Source of the DNA: Pseudobdellovibrionaceae bacterium
GTDB taxonomy: Bacteria; Bdellovibrionota; Bdellovibrionia; Bdellovibrionales; UBA1609
Length of the DNA stretch: 64,000 nucleotides
Reading direction: 5' to 3'
Assembly: GCA_947444305.1 (NCBI GenBank)
Contig: CANEZP010000008.1
Location: 86,682-150,681 of the forward strand
Within the stretch, counting starts at the first letter, position 1; each line of letters begins with the position of its first letter. The notes under the pieces were generated by a model. That model saw only the letters and a list, made by a program, of their open reading frames with translations. It had not been told where the DNA came from and did no database searches. Positions 9,892 through 52,839 of the stretch are shown one piece after another. The position numbers and the translations under genes were made by a program.

Positions 9892-11151
9892 CTACGGAAT
9901 GTACGGGACGTTGAAGCCCCGCTTTTCGGCCGGAGCCGCGCCCGAAAACAAATCGTAATTCAAGGCCCAGCCGAGTTTGTTCGTCTTCAGCGCGAACAAT
10001 GAGCGTGCGGCGAGCGCGAGTTTTGCGTCGTCGACGACTTTTTCTTCCACTAACGCATCTAAATCACTAAAGCGCCATTGCCGGATCATGCGGTCGCGCG
10101 GTTCCGTATCGTAGCGCGAAGACAAAACGACTACGCCCGCGGCGTTCGGCCGCCAGTAATACGAGTTCGCCGTTACGAAAGTCAGATTGTTCGCGACCTG
10201 GTCGAGGCGCGAATGCGTTACCGTGCCCGCGGCGCGCACCAACTGTTTGCTCAAAACTTGCCCGCCGTTCACGTAATAGATCCGCACCCCGCCCTCGGTG
10301 TAGTCGGTCGTGAGAATGTGCGCGTCCAAACCTTTCGCGCGCCAGATGACCGAGCCGCTGAGCGAGGTCGGGAGGTTGGTCAACGAACCGGCATCCGTAT
10401 CGACGACCGCCATGCGTGATTTTGTCGCGATCATCACTTGATCGGGCCGACCACGCACCGGCGCGAGCCACTCGATGCCGGTTAGGCCCGTGTTGATTGG
10501 AGCACCGATCGTCGTCCAAGCGCCGGAGCTCATCGTGGCGTCCATGTCCACTTTCACGATCGAACCGTCGCTCAGCGCGAGGATCAAACGTCCACCGTCG
10601 TCGATGTCGCCGGCCGCGATCGTGCGGTTGTTACCGAGATCGGGCCCGCCCTTCCAAGATTTGAGCACGCTCCCGTCGGCGTTGAGCTTCATCATTCCGA
10701 CCGACATCAAAGAATCGTAAATAACGATCACGCCGAGCGAGGGACGAAACGCCGCGGACACCGGGGTTCCAATAAAGCGTATCGGATTGTGCGTCGCCCC
10801 ACCCGCCCGGTCGTACACCGAAAGATGCTTCGTCGTAAAATCGATGATGTAATTGCCCCTCAAATTGTAGAGCACGGTGTGCGGAAGCCCCGGGTTCAGA
10901 ACCGCGAGGCTGCGTTCGATGTTCATGTTCGCGAGATTGAACTGATGAATGCGGCTAACGGTGGGATCATAAACCACGATCTGGTTCACGTCATTGCCGG
11001 CGTCGTCGTTCAGCGAGGACATATCTTCGAGCTTTGCGCCGATCGCGCTGGCGGGCTGAGGCTCGGCGAAGAAGCGAGCATCGCAAGCCGAAATCAGAAG
11101 CGGCATGGCCAAAGCGAAAAATATATTAAGAGCACGAGATTTAGAACGCAT
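9892..11151 (-). CDS. Lipoprotein, function unknown (repeat/beta-rich)
   Basis: 419 aa. Signal peptide with lipobox LLISAC. Last gene of a 3-gene operon (11-nt overlap with the upstream gene). Confidence 0.65.
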   Translation of the reverse strand: MRSKSRALNIFFALAMPLLISACDARFFAEPQPASAIGAKLEDMSSLNDDAGNDVNQIVVYDPTVSRIHQFNLANMNIERSLAVLNPGLPHTVLYNLRGNYIIDFTTKHLSVYDRAGGATHNPIRFIGTPVSAAFRPSLGVIVIYDSLMSVGMMKLNADGSVLKSWKGGPDLGNNRTIAAGDIDDGGRLILALSDGSIVKVDMDATMSSGAWTTIGAPINTGLTGIEWLAPVRGRPDQVMIATKSRMAVVDTDAGSLTNLPTSLSGSVIWRAKGLDAHILTTDYTEGGVRIYYVNGGQVLSKQLVRAAGTVTHSRLDQVANNLTFVTANSYYWRPNAAGVVVLSSRYDTEPRDRMIRQWRFSDLDALVEEKVVDDAKLALAARSLFALKTNKLGWALNYDLFSGAAPAEKRGFNVPYIP

Positions 11152-12325
11152 AAGCCACCCCTAAGTATTGCGAGAGAAGATTCGATTTGTAGTTCACGTT
11201 TACGTTTTCGTATTTGTACGGATGCACTTCGTAAGAGAGCCCCGCGTAGCCCCAAAAACCCCAGAAGATCGGCAAATAGTAATTCACCGCGACGCTTCCG
11301 CCCCAGGTTTTGGCCGAGTACTTCAAATCAAAAGTTTCGCTGAGCTTAAGATCGGACTTCACGTAATCGGCCATGACTTGGATCAAGAAGTGCGATTGGC
11401 CCCAGAAGGTTTCCGGATCGCGGAACGGAAACATGCGGTAGCCTACGCCGAAGCTGTAAATATTCACGTTCTCTTCGACCTTGACCGCGCCGCCTAAAAC
11501 TTTTTTGTCGTTCGCTTCCAGCCGGTATGATGCCGCGAACACGAAGTCTCCGAGTGCGTAGTGCGCGGTCAACTGCGAGCGCGAGAAATCTTCGCTCGCG
11601 AAAGTGCCTTTTGGTTTATCGTTCATGTTAGCCACGCCGAAATTCATGCCCAGCCAGAAGCGCTTCCAACTTTGCGAACGGTTGAGTCGCGCGCGGTAGC
11701 TTTTGATTTCGTACGGATACTGCACTTGCAAAACGGCCGCGCTCGCCCCCATGGCGTTGAGCAAACGACGTCCGCCCTCTTGCCCGTCGAAAGGTCCCAC
11801 GTCGCCTTCGTCCTGCATCGCTTTGCCGTTGAGGGCGGTGAGATGCAGCAGTTCGTGGGTCAGCAGGAACACGCGCTCGAACTGTTTGAGATCCAGGAAA
11901 CGTTTAAGATTGAGCGTGATCTCGCGCTTATCGCGATTGGTGACGGCGTCCACCGCGCGGGTCTCGCCCCGGTCGGACACGCGGATTTCTTCGTTGGTCC
12001 AACGGAAGCTGACGGTGTTCGGGTTGTAGACCATGCGTAAGATCTCAGGCGCCTGTTTGAAGAGCGCGTTGCTGCAGTAATCACGCTGCTTCTCGTTCAG
12101 GGCGCGCAAAGGTTCACATACCGAGCGATTGCGAAAGGTGTCGTTGCAGCGGCAGAACTCAACGTCTACCTCGTCTTTACGTTTCTCGATCGCGCGAAAC
12201 GCTTCCGCGACTTGTTTCTTCGTGACCGAGAGCTCGACGTCACCCGCCCCGCCCCCGTTTCCGACGAACGTGTTCGCGTGCGACGCGATCGGCATGAGTA
12301 TGAGCAACCACAACAAATGTTTCAT
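11141..12325 (-). CDS. Secreted protein: N-terminal HExxH domain fused to a C-terminal beta-barrel-like domain
   Basis: 394 aa. Signal peptide, GNGGGAGD, LLTHELLHL (HExxH), then an alternating aromatic/glycine-rich C-terminal half ending ..YLGVAYAF (OMP-like terminal Phe). Confidence 0.65.
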   Translation of the reverse strand: MKHLLWLLILMPIASHANTFVGNGGGAGDVELSVTKKQVAEAFRAIEKRKDEVDVEFCRCNDTFRNRSVCEPLRALNEKQRDYCSNALFKQAPEILRMVYNPNTVSFRWTNEEIRVSDRGETRAVDAVTNRDKREITLNLKRFLDLKQFERVFLLTHELLHLTALNGKAMQDEGDVGPFDGQEGGRRLLNAMGASAAVLQVQYPYEIKSYRARLNRSQSWKRFWLGMNFGVANMNDKPKGTFASEDFSRSQLTAHYALGDFVFAASYRLEANDKKVLGGAVKVEENVNIYSFGVGYRMFPFRDPETFWGQSHFLIQVMADYVKSDLKLSETFDLKYSAKTWGGSVAVNYYLPIFWGFWGYAGLSYEVHPYKYENVNVNYKSNLLSQYLGVAYAF

Positions 12326-13149
12326 TCGAGTTTCCCTCCTACAGGACTCAAATTAATGATGAATTGGTAAAGGCGATTCCCTGCCTTCTCCGGATTTTTC
12401 GCGGCGAAATCTTTTAGCTTCTCGGTGAACTCTTGAATCAAACCGTTCAGCTCTTCGTACCGTTGTTCATCAAGCGTGATGATCAAAGTGTTGGCTAAAC
12501 GCTCGTTCGGTTGAAATAGATCAAGCGCGACCTTCGCCAAACTCAAAGCGCCTTTGTGAAACTGCCGGATCTTGCGGCTGGGCACGTTCGGTTCACTAAT
12601 CGCGAGCGTCGTGTCGAGCACCACGCGGCCGTCGATGGTCTTGCGCAAATAACCCTCGCGCAGCAGGAATTGAACGGCCTTCGCGATGCGTTTCGGCGGC
12701 ACGACGGTCATCAATTGTTTTTTGATCAGCTCAGGGTTTTTTTGTACGGCGGGGATGTGGAAGAAGTCTTTAACGTAAACGTTGATCCAATCCGACAACA
12801 GGCCGAGTCCGACGTCTTTGCGCGTGCCCGTCGCTGAAGGTGCGAAGCCGTCTTCCAGAAAATCTTTGTCTTCGAGTTGTCCCAACCACTTACGAAAGTA
12901 GATTTTTTCGGAAACGTTGAGGTTCAGCAGTTTCGAGAACTCATCCGCCCGGTCGAGCGTGAGCGTGCGCTTACCTTGAATGACCAACGACACCAGCGCG
13001 GGCGAAATCTTGCGCAGGCGTTTGACCGAACGAAAGACGCTGAAGCCCGCTTCCGTGTTTTTACGAAAGCGGATCATGTCCTTCACAAACTCGGCAGGAT
13101 CGTCGTATTGACTGATCGTCGGTCGGTTCATGTGGCTGGAGACTCCCAT
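12322..13149 (-). CDS. TIGR02147-like protein (putative HTH regulator)
   Basis: 275 aa. The N-terminal pattern Y.D...F..D....RK...GFS.R..........SP.LVS.VI.GKR.LT matches my recollection of the TIGR02147 family. Paralog at 52018-52839. Confidence 0.6.
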   Translation of the reverse strand: MGVSSHMNRPTISQYDDPAEFVKDMIRFRKNTEAGFSVFRSVKRLRKISPALVSLVIQGKRTLTLDRADEFSKLLNLNVSEKIYFRKWLGQLEDKDFLEDGFAPSATGTRKDVGLGLLSDWINVYVKDFFHIPAVQKNPELIKKQLMTVVPPKRIAKAVQFLLREGYLRKTIDGRVVLDTTLAISEPNVPSRKIRQFHKGALSLAKVALDLFQPNERLANTLIITLDEQRYEELNGLIQEFTEKLKDFAAKNPEKAGNRLYQFIINLSPVGGKLE

Positions 13150-13326
13150 TTTTTACGTTTCGCTATCCGCATAGTTCATCGCCAGACTAAATATAAAAAT
13201 GAGCGATAACAATGGCTTGTGAAGAATCTATTTTCACTTTGTAAAAATATGGGAATGGATAAAAGGATCGGTCACTTAAGCGCCAGCGGGCCTTCCCGGC
13301 CGTGCATTCGGGTTCATCAAATCGAT

Positions 13327-13998: not shown

Positions 13999-14159
13999 CC
14001 GATCTGCTTCTCAGATAGGCATCTCATGGTCAACGGCAACGCTCCGCACTGTCGCGACGGCAGCGCAATGCAACGGAGGCCTCAAACCCGCAAAATCACT
14101 TGCCTTGAACGCCAGTTTATTGGAAATCTCAATGTTCCAATCGTTTCTGTATTCCGTGT

Positions 14160-14235
14160 TGGGGTGTCGGCAAGCTGGTAAGCCTTCAGATTTTGATTCT
14201 GACATTCGCAGGTTCGAGTCCTGCCACCCCATCCA
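14160..14235 (+). tRNA. tRNA-Gln (anticodon UUG), CCA encoded
   Basis: Manual cloverleaf. Acceptor tggggtg/cacccca, D arm ggc-aagctggtaa-gcc, anticodon arm tcaga-ttTTGat-tctga, variable loop cattc, T arm gcagg-ttcgagt-cctgc, discriminator t, then CCA. 76 nt. Resembles E. coli tRNA-Gln. Confidence 0.9.
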
Positions 14236-14240
14236 ATTTC
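14220..14240 (+). repeat. attL-type core: tRNA-Gln 3' end (cctgccaccccatccaatttc)
   Basis: This 21-mer recurs as direct repeats at 25664-25682, 28846-28866 and 30041-30056, with a partial copy at 29021-29033. Confidence 0.7.
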
Positions 14241-14243
14241 TTT

Positions 14244-15335
14244 CTAACTCCCCGAAATCAAACGCAGTTTTTTTGACAGAATATGGGTTGAGGGTTTTTG
14301 CGGGTCAACGTTTGCCCCGAACATCACATCTGTTGCCCCATCCACTCTGAAAACATCACTCAAGGCACTCGAAACCTTCTGCTTCTGATGATCCGTTTCG
14401 CCCGTATATCTGCGGGTCACTCTTACGGAAGAGTGTCCGAGAAAACGAGAGATCGCATCGATATCACCAGTCGCTTCGTTTGCGAGTGTAGCCGATGTTC
14501 TTCTCATGAAATGAGTTCCGCTTACGTGCGTGAAGCCTAGCGATTTAAGCATCGTGTTGTAGTACGTCGCGATTGTTTTCCTATTTAACGGACTTCCATC
14601 GTGACGTGGCATCAACAGCGGGTTCTTTGGATCACTTACATCGATCAGGCCTTTAAGCTCCGGCACCAACTCCAAAGGAATCGGTAGATAACGAACACGC
14701 TTTGTCTTCGTGTGCTCTTTAATTTTGGGCTCCCATGTACGGAAGTCCCAATGAACACTTCTACGAATCGTTATCACGCGCTTGTTGAGGTCGACGCAGT
14801 CTTTATAGAGTGCGCACACCTCACCGATCCTAAGGGCAAAGAAGTACTGTAGGAGTGCTGTGTAGTAGTAGGTCCGATGTCGATTCTTAAGTCTTTGAAG
14901 AAACGCGATGGTTTCTTCAGAGTTTAAGTACTTCACTTCACCTTCTACGTTCGGCACCAGCGTGGTCATCTTCTTTAGCTTCTTAAAAGAAGGCATTGCA
15001 TAGCCAGCCCCTTCCGGAACCTCCTCTTTATAGAACTGAAGAATGACTCGTAACATCTGCCATTCCTTCATGAAGGATTTTCTTCTGAAGGATCTGGGAA
15101 AGTCATTCATCCAAAAATACGCGAGGCGGTTCAAAACCTGGCCATCGATCTTATTCACCGGATAATCGAGAAGGAAGTCCACCGCGGGAAGTAGATTTTC
15201 GTACTTCTGCTGCGTACTTTCCTCGATCAAAAGAAAATGGAACTTCTTCCACACCACGATGAGATCGCGAAACAAGAACCCGAGGGTCCTTTCTCCTTCG
15301 ACGTCCATCGTAAGGCTAGAGTCTTCAAGACTCAT
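14244..15335 (-). CDS. int: Tyrosine recombinase / phage-type integrase
   Basis: 363 aa. Catalytic signature ALRIGE (Arg), HFMRRT (HxxR), LGHSSVRVTRRY (His, Tyr). The stop lies 9 nt from the tRNA end. Confidence 0.9.
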   Translation of the reverse strand: MSLEDSSLTMDVEGERTLGFLFRDLIVVWKKFHFLLIEESTQQKYENLLPAVDFLLDYPVNKIDGQVLNRLAYFWMNDFPRSFRRKSFMKEWQMLRVILQFYKEEVPEGAGYAMPSFKKLKKMTTLVPNVEGEVKYLNSEETIAFLQRLKNRHRTYYYTALLQYFFALRIGEVCALYKDCVDLNKRVITIRRSVHWDFRTWEPKIKEHTKTKRVRYLPIPLELVPELKGLIDVSDPKNPLLMPRHDGSPLNRKTIATYYNTMLKSLGFTHVSGTHFMRRTSATLANEATGDIDAISRFLGHSSVRVTRRYTGETDHQKQKVSSALSDVFRVDGATDVMFGANVDPQKPSTHILSKKLRLISGS

Positions 15336-50809: not shown

Positions 50810-50992
50810 TTAGTTGGGAAAGATTTTTTTCATGGTGGCGCGAACGGCTTCAAGCTCTTTGCGAACCGCCTTGCGGTCGCCGGTTGAAACGTCGTAGATG
50901 TCCTCGGTGATGTCGAACCAAGGTAAAGGTTCTTCCGTCATCATACCCACGAGGTCCTTAAGCGGCCTGGGACCTTGCCAATTTGCTGTCAC
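50810..50992 (-). CDS. Small hypothetical protein
   Basis: 60 aa. 4-nt overlap with the upstream HExxH gene. Confidence 0.3.
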   Translation of the reverse strand: MTANWQGPRPLKDLVGMMTEEPLPWFDITEDIYDVSTGDRKAVRKELEAVRATMKKIFPN

Positions 50993-51900
50993 ACGAGGGG
51001 TTTCTCAATGCCACGGAACTCGAAAGCGTGGGGCACGGTGGACATAAAATTCTTGAGGTTGCTGATGCGAAAGTAAACCGCGTAGATATCTTTTTGATTC
51101 TGCCCGTTCAATGGACCGAGAAAATCTTTGGTTTGTTTCATAAACGCTAATGTAAGCTCTTCGGTGATATCTTTATCTAAGGCCGTTAATGCAAAAGCCA
51201 GCCCGATCGAACTGAGTTTTTCGCAGTCTTCGATTAACATATTAAGCGTCAAGGCGTTCTCGGTTTTATCTTTCCAGCTTAGGGTCTCGTTCCAGTCATC
51301 TTGCAACTCTGTTAAGGCATGATTGCTGACTTTGATCGATCCTAAAGCAAGTCTTTCCAGAGCAACGGCTTCCGTCTCATCGGTCCCCACCAAGTGCGTG
51401 AACTCGTGAATCGCCAAAGCAAGCGCATGATTATAGACCGTCGATGTTTGGTGCTTTAACCACATTGAATGAGCATCAAAACATACCGTCATGTTTTCCC
51501 GATGAGCACTCGCGTCTCTTCTTTCGTTAGTCTCCGGGTCGTAGCAAGGCTCGGTCTGCACGTTAATGCGCGCGGTTCGAATGGCCGCGAAGATATCGAG
51601 CGGTGGCGTCGTCAGTTTAGCGCGTAATTTTTTACCCGCTTCGTGCCCACCAAGGGGGAATTCCAATTCATTCGTCGATTCGGTGTCTACGTTTAACAAT
51701 GGGCTGAGCATCATGTTGAAATGCCAAGCACTTAGCGTCGCGACCTTGTTACGAAGAAAGTCGGCAAGTTCTTCTTCGGTGATCGTTCGGGGTGGGCTAA
51801 GATCGCCACCGCCCCCGCTGTTGCCGCCGAGCTTCGGAGTCGCGATCGCCGTTTGGGCCGTGGCCATTAAACATAAAAAGATGAGCTTCATATTTTTCAT
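50989..51900 (-). CDS. Secreted HExxH-motif protein, related to the N-domain of 11141-12325
   Basis: 303 aa. Signal peptide, GGNSGGGGD, ALAIHEFTHLVG (HExxH). Confidence 0.6.
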   Translation of the reverse strand: MKNMKLIFLCLMATAQTAIATPKLGGNSGGGGDLSPPRTITEEELADFLRNKVATLSAWHFNMMLSPLLNVDTESTNELEFPLGGHEAGKKLRAKLTTPPLDIFAAIRTARINVQTEPCYDPETNERRDASAHRENMTVCFDAHSMWLKHQTSTVYNHALALAIHEFTHLVGTDETEAVALERLALGSIKVSNHALTELQDDWNETLSWKDKTENALTLNMLIEDCEKLSSIGLAFALTALDKDITEELTLAFMKQTKDFLGPLNGQNQKDIYAVYFRISNLKNFMSTVPHAFEFRGIEKPLV

Positions 51901-52017
51901 TGGTTACCTCCAGTGGTGTACCTGGGAACGGTCTATATCGCAAGGTGCTATACTTTATATATTTATGATGTTAATGCTTAGGCCATTTTTTAATTTTTAA
52001 TTAATTTATGAGGCTAA

Positions 52018-52839
52018 GTGATTGATATGAATAAGGTTAGTGACTACACCGATTACAAGCAATTTCTGCTCGATTGGATCGATTCGCGCAAGGCACTTCA
52101 ACGTGGATTGCGTACGGCCCTCGCTCAAGCGGCCGGCTGCCAAAGTGCGTTCGTCTCCCAGGTCCTTAACGGCAAGCCGAATTTTTCTATCGAACAATCG
52201 TTCGCCATCACTTCGTTCTTAGGCCTCAAACCCGACGAAACTCGCTACTTTCTTGCGTTGGTGCACCTCGCGCGCGCGGGAACGCCGGAGCTGCGCAAAC
52301 ATTGCCGGGCCGATTTGCAGGAACAACGTAAGGTCTTATTAGATATCAAAAGCCAGGTTGGTGAGACCCGCGCCCTCACGCCCGAAGAGCAGAATCTTTA
52401 TTACAGCTCGTGGCTTTACGTGGTGATCCATATGTTAGTCACCATTCCCCAATACCAAAACCTGAAGGTCATCGCGCAAGCATTGAAATTAGAACTCTCG
52501 CGGGTACGCGCCGTGGTTAGCGACTTAGTCGGCTTGGGTTTGATACGCCAAGTGAAAGACCAATTCGTTCCGGGCGCAACGCAGATGCATTTGCCTAAAG
52601 CTTCACCGCTGATCCGGCAGCACCACGGCAACCTACGACTCAGGGCTTTAGATCACCTTGCCACCGGAAACGCCGAGGGAATTCACTACTCCACCGTCTC
52701 AAGCTTATCCGCGCAAGACGCTGAGAAGCTTCACGCAAAGATCGTCGAGTGGATCGCACAATACAATTCGGTGGTTCGCGATTCGCCGGAAGAAGTTTTG
52801 GTGGGTTTTAACGTAGATTTTTATTCGCTAGTGAATTGA
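52018..52839 (+). CDS. TIGR02147-like protein, paralog of 12322-13149
   Basis: 273 aa. DYTDYKQFLLDWIDSRKA...SQVLNGKPNFSIEQSFAITSFLGLKPDETRYFLALV. Start may be ATG 52027. Confidence 0.6.
   Translation: MIDMNKVSDYTDYKQFLLDWIDSRKALQRGLRTALAQAAGCQSAFVSQVLNGKPNFSIEQSFAITSFLGLKPDETRYFLALVHLARAGTPELRKHCRADLQEQRKVLLDIKSQVGETRALTPEEQNLYYSSWLYVVIHMLVTIPQYQNLKVIAQALKLELSRVRAVVSDLVGLGLIRQVKDQFVPGATQMHLPKASPLIRQHHGNLRLRALDHLATGNAEGIHYSTVSSLSAQDAEKLHAKIVEWIAQYNSVVRDSPEEVLVGFNVDFYSLVN

Follow-up and report, generated by a model that had tools for sequence, protein, structure and literature searches.

We analyzed a 64,000-nucleotide stretch of a Pseudobdellovibrionaceae bacterium (GenBank assembly GCA_947444305.1, contig CANEZP010000008.1, positions 86,682 to 150,681), here called the window, in which two genes of the TIGR02147/DUF4423 family, T1 and T2, each lie next to a gene for an exported protein with an HExxH motif, P1 and P2. 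An initial annotation made from the sequence alone had named these four open reading frames (ORFs; 12322-13149, 11141-12325, 52018-52839 and 50989-51900) and suggested that their recurrence reflects a functional pairing, and all four are present at these positions. Searches with hidden Markov models (HMMs) find exactly two TIGR02147 genes in the window, using a model built from TIGR02147 proteins, and a single member each of the P1 and P2 families within the 64 kb, each adjoining a TIGR02147 gene. When P1 and P2 loci from other genomes are combined, 36 of 36 sampled partner genes adjoin such a regulator gene, and this conserved adjacency together with the likely homology of the partners supports a functional pairing. 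The features discussed below are as follows.

12322..13149, minus strand: T1, TIGR02147/DUF4423 protein of 275 aa and first gene of the locus 1 operon, with a predicted N-terminal XRE-type helix-turn-helix (HTH) and a predicted central MarR-like winged helix
11141..12325, minus strand: P1, predicted exported two-domain protein of 394 aa with a signal peptide, a zincin-like N-domain (residues ~20-205) and an OmpA-like barrel (residues ~216-394)
12233..12268, minus strand: P1 Gly-rich motif FVGNGGGAGDVE, residues 20-31, at the predicted mature N-terminus
11843..11857, minus strand: P1 HELLH (H157, E158, H161), invariant alignment columns at the end of a predicted helix
11809-11811, minus strand: P1 D172, invariant, 11 residues past HELLH
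9892..11151, minus strand: third operon gene, predicted lipoprotein of 419 aa with lipobox LISAC, overlapping the end of P1 by 11 nt
13229..13249, no strand: palindrome TATTTTCAC-TTT-GTAAAAATA with core TTTAC-N3-GTAAA, candidate operator or promoter element of the locus 1 operon
52018..52839, plus strand: T2, TIGR02147/DUF4423 protein of 273 aa, divergent from P2
51901..52017, no strand: T2/P2 divergent intergenic region, 117 bp, AT-rich, with inverted repeats
50989..51900, minus strand: P2, first 303 codons, with a signal peptide, Gly motif, zincin-like core and helical C-terminal region
51802-51828, minus strand: P2 GGNSGGGGD, the Gly motif after the leader
51394-51408, minus strand: P2 HExxH within HEFTHLVGTDE (H165, E166, H169), with E175 at metzincin-type spacing
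50810..50992, minus strand: out-of-frame remainder of P2, the C-terminal ~60 residues, located by three-frame translation

Both TIGR02147-like ORFs are true members of the family. T1 scores 89.7 bits on NCBIfam TIGR02147 (profile positions 3-268 of 272) and 76.7 bits on Pfam DUF4423 (PF14394), and T2 scores 72.8 bits (profile positions 1-269 of 272) and 60.6 bits, above the curated cut-offs of 50 and 30 bits, respectively. Sharing 24% identity, the two proteins are old paralogues. TIGR02147/DUF4423 is a named family, with TIGR02147 defined in Fibrobacter, and has no known function or characterized member; the sole mention of TIGR02147, DUF4423 or PF14394 found in the full-text literature, with most subscription journals outside the search, is a proteomics table that lists the DUF4423 protein Bd3700 as up-regulated during growth inside prey (PMC12546842). 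A profile of 20 TIGR02147 sequences compared with sequences in the Protein Data Bank (PDB) matches a HigA/XRE-type HTH at positions ~20-70 (E-value (E) 1.6e-3 and weaker) and a MarR-family winged helix at positions ~135-206 (FabT, E 4.5e-4, along with AdcR and ZitR), and T2 gives weak HTH_3 and TrmB matches in Pfam. No leader or membrane segment is evident in TIGR02147 proteins. On the strength of this remote similarity, T1 and T2 would be cytoplasmic DNA-binding regulators, and the label "regulator" is used here in that provisional sense.

At locus 1 the TGA stop of T1 overlaps the ATG start of P1 within an ATGA (12322-12325), with AGGAGG ~11 nt upstream, bearing out the overlap described in the initial annotation. 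That description of the locus as a pair gives way to a three-gene unit of T1, P1 and the 419-aa lipoprotein. We scanned 25 loci with a P1 homologue, one genome per species and all from Bdellovibrionota, and found a T1 orthologue immediately 5′ of P1 on the same strand in every one (25/25), a 4-nt stop/start overlap wherever the start could be placed, and a homologue of the 419-aa lipoprotein directly 3′ in all 21 loci having downstream sequence. Beyond the three operon genes the flanks are unconserved, with PAP2 and SpoVG genes common to the closest relatives only. The lipoprotein has no Pfam or NCBIfam match at cut-off, a PDB sequence search with it gave weak hints or noise only, and the anti-phage defense models of PADLOC returned no match for it or for T1, T2, P1 or P2. 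Scans of the surroundings of locus 1 for sigma-70 promoters and terminators gave no informative signal.

The palindrome TATTTTCAC-TTT-GTAAAAATA lies ~70-100 nt upstream of the T1 start in the window. Its core, TTTAC-N3-GTAAA with at most one mismatch, recurs ahead of the T1 orthologue in all 24 loci with sufficient upstream sequence, and nearly all exact matches to the core in 526 kb of locus DNA sit at this position. Because the core pattern occurs three times in the window against 1.7 expected, a count not above chance, the evidence for the palindrome is the conservation of its position across genomes. By this conservation the palindrome is likely the operator of the locus 1 operon. Across loci L001-L025 another conserved block, YATTG, is situated ~25 nt downstream of the palindrome.

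P1 begins with a Sec-type N-terminus (MKH-LLWLLILMPIA-SHA/N) and has 62 homologues in a word-indexed protein database, of which all with a named source come from Bdellovibrionales, Pseudobdellovibrionaceae or Bdellovibrio. In an alignment of 36 family members reaching down to 29% identity, the pattern V-G-N-G-G-x-x-G-D-x-E is invariant straight after a variable hydrophobic leader, with V21, G22, N23, G24, G25, D29 and E31 of the window protein, in and around its GNGGGAGD motif, unchanged throughout. The same alignment holds H157, E158, H161 and D172 invariant and also conserves four invariant Cys residues, W109, D126-A127 and R151. An AlphaFold2 model of P1 (predicted local distance difference test (pLDDT) 90) shows an N-domain of helices and sheet in which helix 148-160 carries HExxH at its end, followed by a C-domain with eight long strands predicted between residues 223 and 393. 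Foldseek output for the full model was dominated by barrel matches, and the C-domain superposes on OmpA/OmpX/Ail/NspA structures with probability 1.0 and template modeling (TM) scores of 0.73-0.76 (9fzd, 9fzc, 1p4t, 1bxw). The C-terminal half ends in an aromatic residue, YAF being the last three residues of the window protein, and with superposable strands and this C-terminal aromatic the C-domain has the features of an OmpA-like eight-stranded barrel, at 24.2 bits on PF13505 against a cut-off of 28.7. For the N-domain, Foldseek gave the aspzincin deuterolysin (E 1.4e-3), and the best PDB sequence match of the P1 profile was the minigluzincin selecase MJ1213 (E 0.034, positions 104-163).

A barrel with an even number of strands has both ends on the periplasmic side. 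The predicted even-stranded barrel of P1 would therefore place the HExxH N-domain facing the periplasm, tethered to the outer membrane, and from this topology a periplasm-facing module on the outer membrane is the most likely arrangement. We also considered P1 as a type Va autotransporter. In such proteins a 12-stranded barrel with a linker helix exports an N-terminal passenger; the barrel of P1 has eight strands and autotransporter barrels are only poor matches to it (TM 0.16-0.30), and this assignment was rejected.

P2 also begins with a Sec-type N-terminus (MKNMK-LIFLCLMATAQ-TAIA/T). The word-indexed protein search returned P2 alone, and an exhaustive HMMER search of 1.84 billion cluster representatives returned 197 relatives at E ≤ 1e-3, so that building models from the HExxH partners, a check put forward in the initial annotation, recovered a family. 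A word-indexed search with the P2-family alignment gave only seven proteins because low-complexity Gly words saturated the candidate list, and the GGNSGGGG pattern matched 600 metagenome stretches with no relative among them. Most relatives are ~350 aa and share a leader followed by G-G-x-S-G-G-G-G, then P-C-x-D...D-[GA]-S...I-C-x-S and H-E-x-S-H-L-x-G-x-x-E. Across a 73-sequence alignment G31, G32, C119, C140, L162, H165, E166 and H169 are invariant, and at least 90% of sequences keep G25, G30, D121, D129, S131, G172 and E175. The HExxHxxGxxE motif has metzincin spacing with Glu in the third position. An AlphaFold2 model of P2 (pLDDT 82.5) predicts a three-stranded sheet, a helix at 155-169 ending in HExxH, a helix from E175 and a helical C-terminal region. 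Foldseek with this model gave nothing significant, the three best matches being selecase at E ~0.5, and comparison of the P2 profile with PDB sequences gave noise only.

P2 relatives are ~60 residues longer than the 303-aa window ORF. The window gene is split by a 1-nt deletion, with a C4 run at 50997-51000 in place of the C5 in contig L056, which is 98.2% identical to the window (47 mismatches and one 1-nt gap in 2542 bases) and encodes an intact P2 of 363 aa (cluster member P0217). The partner ORF at 50989-51900 described in the initial annotation thus stands with its leader, Gly motif and HExxH, but as a truncated gene whose remainder lies in a 60-aa ORF at 50810-50992. The frameshift may reflect phase variation, pseudogene formation or an error in the assembly. 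Between the divergent T2 and P2 genes, the 117-bp spacer contains TTAATT-N3-AATTAA near its T2 side and CCTTGCGATATA near its P2 side. The motif CCTTGCGATA(T/A)A is common to the window spacer and to L027 5048-5143, ~45 nt upstream of the P2 start in a pair of loci whose proteins are ~30% identical, and may be a promoter element. Divergent spacers of P2-type loci contain AT-rich palindromes that differ at each locus; a regulatory role for 51901-52017 is presumed, without statistical support.

The initial annotation had also pointed to three features shared by P1 and P2, a signal peptide, a Gly-rich motif directly after it and a similar HExxH context. All three elements are present in both proteins, and the Gly motifs GNGGGAGD and GGNSGGGGD and the HExxH residues (H157/E158/H161 and H165/E166/H169) are invariant or nearly so within each family. 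Upstream of HExxH a shared segment is retained, although P2 reads ERRDA, not RxxDA as described, and the conserved part is D-[AG]-[SV], a strand and the HExxH helix. Leaders vary in sequence and keep their hydrophobic character in both families, with four invariant Cys residues in P1 and two in P2, and both partners are predicted to be exported by the Sec route. Neither P1 nor P2 matches a Pfam or NCBIfam model at cut-off.

Pairwise BLASTP between P1 and P2 gave no match, and comparison of a single sequence with the P1 profile was marginal (23.6% probability). Alignment of the P1 N-domain and P2 family profiles with hhalign gave 93% probability and E 2.6e-7 over A-x-D-A...I-T-x-N...HExxHL, a homology signal whose absence the initial annotation had named as grounds for abandoning the pairing. 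When the settings are relaxed, the two families align in one collinear stretch that starts at the leader and Gly motif and runs past HExxH; when both alignments end ahead of the HExxH helix, the register is unchanged and again ranks first (E 2.6e-4); and a control with reversed columns gave 2.3% probability. The P2 HMM also matches a P1-family member across the whole N-domain (E 7e-4). Together, these comparisons suggest that the P1 and P2 N-domains are likely distant homologues. HExxH on a helix, the motif of zincins, is conserved in 36 P1 and 73 P2 sequences, and candidates for the third metal ligand are D172, which is invariant in P1, and E175, which at least 90% of the P2 sequences keep. 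In both models HExxH lies at the C-terminal end of a helix after a small sheet, with marginal fold matches to known zincins. The invariant HExxH together with these weak fold and sequence links points to putative metallo-enzymes, for which zinc binding and peptidase activity are predicted.

The pairing at locus 2 extends to distant relatives of P2. We examined 11 independent P2 relatives with contigs, all of which score far below P2 in the exhaustive search and which are 18-31% identical to it where aligned. A DUF4423/TIGR02147 gene lies beside each of the 11, or beside a tandem array containing the relative, and cut regulator genes were confirmed by HMM, in one case as the sole confirmation. 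Eight relatives are directly divergent from the regulator (P0214, P0065, P0090, P0126, P0099, P0072, P0145 and P0068), two are co-directional with it and overlap by 4 nt (P0210 and P0084), and one (P0078) sits in a tandem array of four P2 paralogues divergent from the regulator. Other flanking genes differ in every one of these 11 loci. With 25/25 P1 loci and 11/11 P2 relatives, the adjacency is enriched in other genomes, the opposite of what had been named as evidence against it. Given that each TIGR02147 gene in the window lies beside one partner and that external loci repeat the arrangement, chance is untenable. We found no paper describing such a pairing, with most subscription journals outside the search, in agreement with the initial annotation. 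In L058 (2074-7167), one DUF4423 gene is divergent from four P2 paralogues, each with AGGVSGGGG after the leader and HExSHLxGxxE.

Viewed from the regulator side, the neighbors are more varied. This sample comprised 20 metagenome loci with the TIGR02147 genes most similar to T2, plus paralogues in L014 and L006. P2-type neighbors of T2-like genes occur in L047 and L037. Matrixin-like genes adjoin, or lie one gene from, TIGR02147 genes in L006 (1-1131; HELGHVYGFNH with Gly motif GGTSSGGGE, Peptidase_M10 28.9 bits against a cut-off of 24) and L031 (2851-4086; HEIGHVLGNDH with Gly motif GADSSGGGD), and since the Gly motif is present on these proteins too, it crosses protein-family boundaries. Further neighbors in L032 (4021-4956 and 5888-6559) and L035 (3752-4672) share the leader, Gly motif and D-A...strand...HE register but have HEYSG, HEILS or HELFG in place of HExxH, and from their sequences are probably non-catalytic relatives. 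Gly-motif proteins without a recognizable HE motif lie beside TIGR02147 genes in L042 and L044. A motif scan of the 526 kb finds Gly-motif leaders almost only beside TIGR02147 genes, a result that is supportive and not an unbiased estimate because the loci were chosen for carrying either gene. One Pseudobdellovibrionaceae contig carries five TIGR02147 paralogues inside 21 kb (L014 7027-21066), where each adjoins small genes with secretion leaders and the neighbor at 14115-14882 carries HELLH. In L052 (6275-7080) a second DUF4423 gene is apparently split into ORFs of 184 and 84 aa. In the window itself, a tRNA-Gln gene (14160-14235, plus strand) is followed directly by a Phage_integrase-family gene (14244-15335, minus strand), and 14160-15335, ~1 kb from locus 1, may be one border of an integrated element.

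We propose, with a probability of about 0.6, that each locus is a regulator-target cassette in which a local transcription factor controls the adjacent gene for an exported metallopeptidase-like protein, multiplied in Bdellovibrionota. The TIGR02147/DUF4423 protein would be a cytoplasmic DNA-binder with an XRE-type HTH and a MarR-like winged helix that controls transcription of the neighboring gene, and the target would be exported by the Sec route, contain disulfides and have a minimal zincin-type HExxH domain behind a conserved Gly-rich mature N-terminus. At locus 1, T1 would be the first gene of an autoregulated operon (regulator, HExxH-barrel fusion and lipoprotein) and would act through the conserved palindrome; at locus 2, T2 would control the shared 117-bp divergent region and a soluble exported target with HExxHxxGxxE. 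The cassette would have expanded into many paralogues in Bdellovibrionota, with two target families that are distant homologues.

Several observations weigh against this proposal. Among loci with enough flank, about half of the TIGR02147 genes most similar to T2 adjoin unrelated small secreted proteins. The HTH and winged-helix matches of the regulators to PDB sequences are weak (E 4.5e-4 to 1.6e-3), the fold matches of the HExxH domains are marginal, with no Foldseek match of P2 below E 0.4, and the P2 gene of the window is frameshifted. The HExxG and HExxS motifs in L032 and L035 have no second His and no canonical zinc binding, so that not all superfamily members are catalytic. A plain transcription factor is also not usually so strictly coupled in translation to an abundant envelope protein, and the coupling of T1 to P1 may point to a closer functional tie.

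The degenerate motifs bear on whether the targets are enzymes at all. They could instead be envelope proteins with binding or structural roles on a zincin-derived scaffold, with TIGR02147 still acting as local regulator; HEYSG, HEILS and HELFG in related neighbors of TIGR02147 genes fit such a role, as do the lack of a significant fold match for P2 and the candidate status of the third metal ligand. We regard it as doubtful, since H, E and H are invariant in 36 P1 and 73 P2 sequences down to ~20-30% identity, the pattern of a working active site. A different role for the Gly motif would make the motif (GGxSGGGG or VGNGGxxGDxE) and TIGR02147 a dedicated predator module, in which the motif would signal latency or sorting and be linked in function to the regulator beside it, with export or activation feeding back on transcription, for instance. 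The motif is present on at least four different types of exported protein adjoining TIGR02147 genes. Its GGxGD is similar to the RTX motif GGxGxD without fitting it, and its G-D may recall the Asp-switch of pro-astacin. Such a module, which we consider unlikely, would if real be a new control system for predatory exo-enzymes, beyond an ordinary regulator-target pair.

Conserved ATGA coupling implies co-production, and the Gly motif and TIGR02147 co-occur over several otherwise different protein families, so one could also envisage that TIGR02147 partners the pre-protein in the cytoplasm, for example as an inhibitor, chaperone or targeting factor, and recognizes the Gly-rich N-terminus before export. 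This is improbable when both recognizable TIGR02147 domains are DNA-binding types, most P2-type pairs are divergent and not coupled, and a conserved palindrome lies upstream of the T1 operon. The logic of an XRE-type HTH gene beside an HExxH gene is shared with protease-repressor switches of the ImmR/ImmA or DdrO/IrrE kind, in which genes would be derepressed through cleavage of the HTH protein by its HExxH neighbor, and pairs of an XRE HTH protein and a COG2856 HExxH protease are well documented (PMC6868357 and PMC10904395). P1 and P2, however, have signal-peptide-like leaders and invariant Cys pairs, P1 has a predicted outer-membrane barrel, TIGR02147 proteins have neither leader nor membrane segment, and a meeting with a cytoplasmic regulator is not expected; neither protein matches the ImmA/IrrE peptidase family in Pfam at E ≤ 0.01. 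A switch of this type is very improbable here because the HExxH proteins are predicted to be exported. Coincidental adjacency, or synteny inherited among close relatives, has only the general abundance of secreted proteins in Bdellovibrio-like genomes in its favor and is practically negligible given 36/36 partner genes with a regulator, partner identities down to ~20-30%, both gene layouts and unrelated flanks.

The proposed regulator-target cassette joins two uncharacterized families, the partner family being without a Pfam or NCBIfam model, and is not a categorically new system. Its near-obligate linkage gives TIGR02147/DUF4423 and the partner family a first testable role, brings exported zincin-like proteins together in a new and large superfamily, one branch of which counts at least 197 clusters at 50% identity, and supplies a candidate operator in the conserved palindrome. 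To our knowledge, little is understood about how Bdellovibrio-like predators time the use of their many secreted hydrolases, and a multiplied cassette of one regulator and one protease would be a tractable entry to this question.

Like the ImmR/ImmA, DdrO/IrrE and CapH/CapP pairs, the loci encode an HTH and an HExxH protein side by side; in those pairs the protease is cytoplasmic and cleaves the repressor, whereas here the HExxH protein is predicted to be exported and carries disulfide-type Cys pairs, with a barrel fused to it in P1, and neither P1 nor P2 matches the ImmA/IrrE (COG2856) peptidase family. In selecase MJ1213 and deuterolysin (M35), as in the HExxH domains, a small β-sheet precedes the active-site helix, HExxH closes that helix, and the next helix or loop carries an acidic residue. 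The P1 profile (by sequence) and the P2 model (by fold) both have selecase as their best PDB match, and deuterolysin is matched by the P1 model, although all of these scores are marginal (E 0.034, ~0.5 and 1.4e-3, respectively) and the Gly-rich segment, Cys pattern and C-terminal domains of P1 and P2 have no counterpart in either enzyme. The P2 spacing HExxHxxGxxE is identical to that of metzincins (matrixins, M10; HExxHxxGxxH/D and a Met-turn), with Glu for the third His/Asp and no Met-turn identified; the PF00413 score of intact P2 (P0217) is 13.3 bits, below the cut-off of 24, and P1 is without metzincin spacing, placing both outside M10. The C-terminal 180 residues of P1 superpose on OmpA/OmpX/Ail with TM ~0.75 and an aromatic end, and differ from OmpA in an inverted domain order, with the soluble domain first, the barrel last and the soluble domain zincin-like. 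Local XRE or MarR regulators encoded beside their targets share with TIGR02147 the predicted small cytoplasmic HTH and winged-helix architecture, the divergent or operonic placement and the upstream palindrome. TIGR02147/DUF4423 differs from them in combining both domain types, and its partner is nearly always from one exported superfamily, in one branch of which the two genes are translationally coupled.

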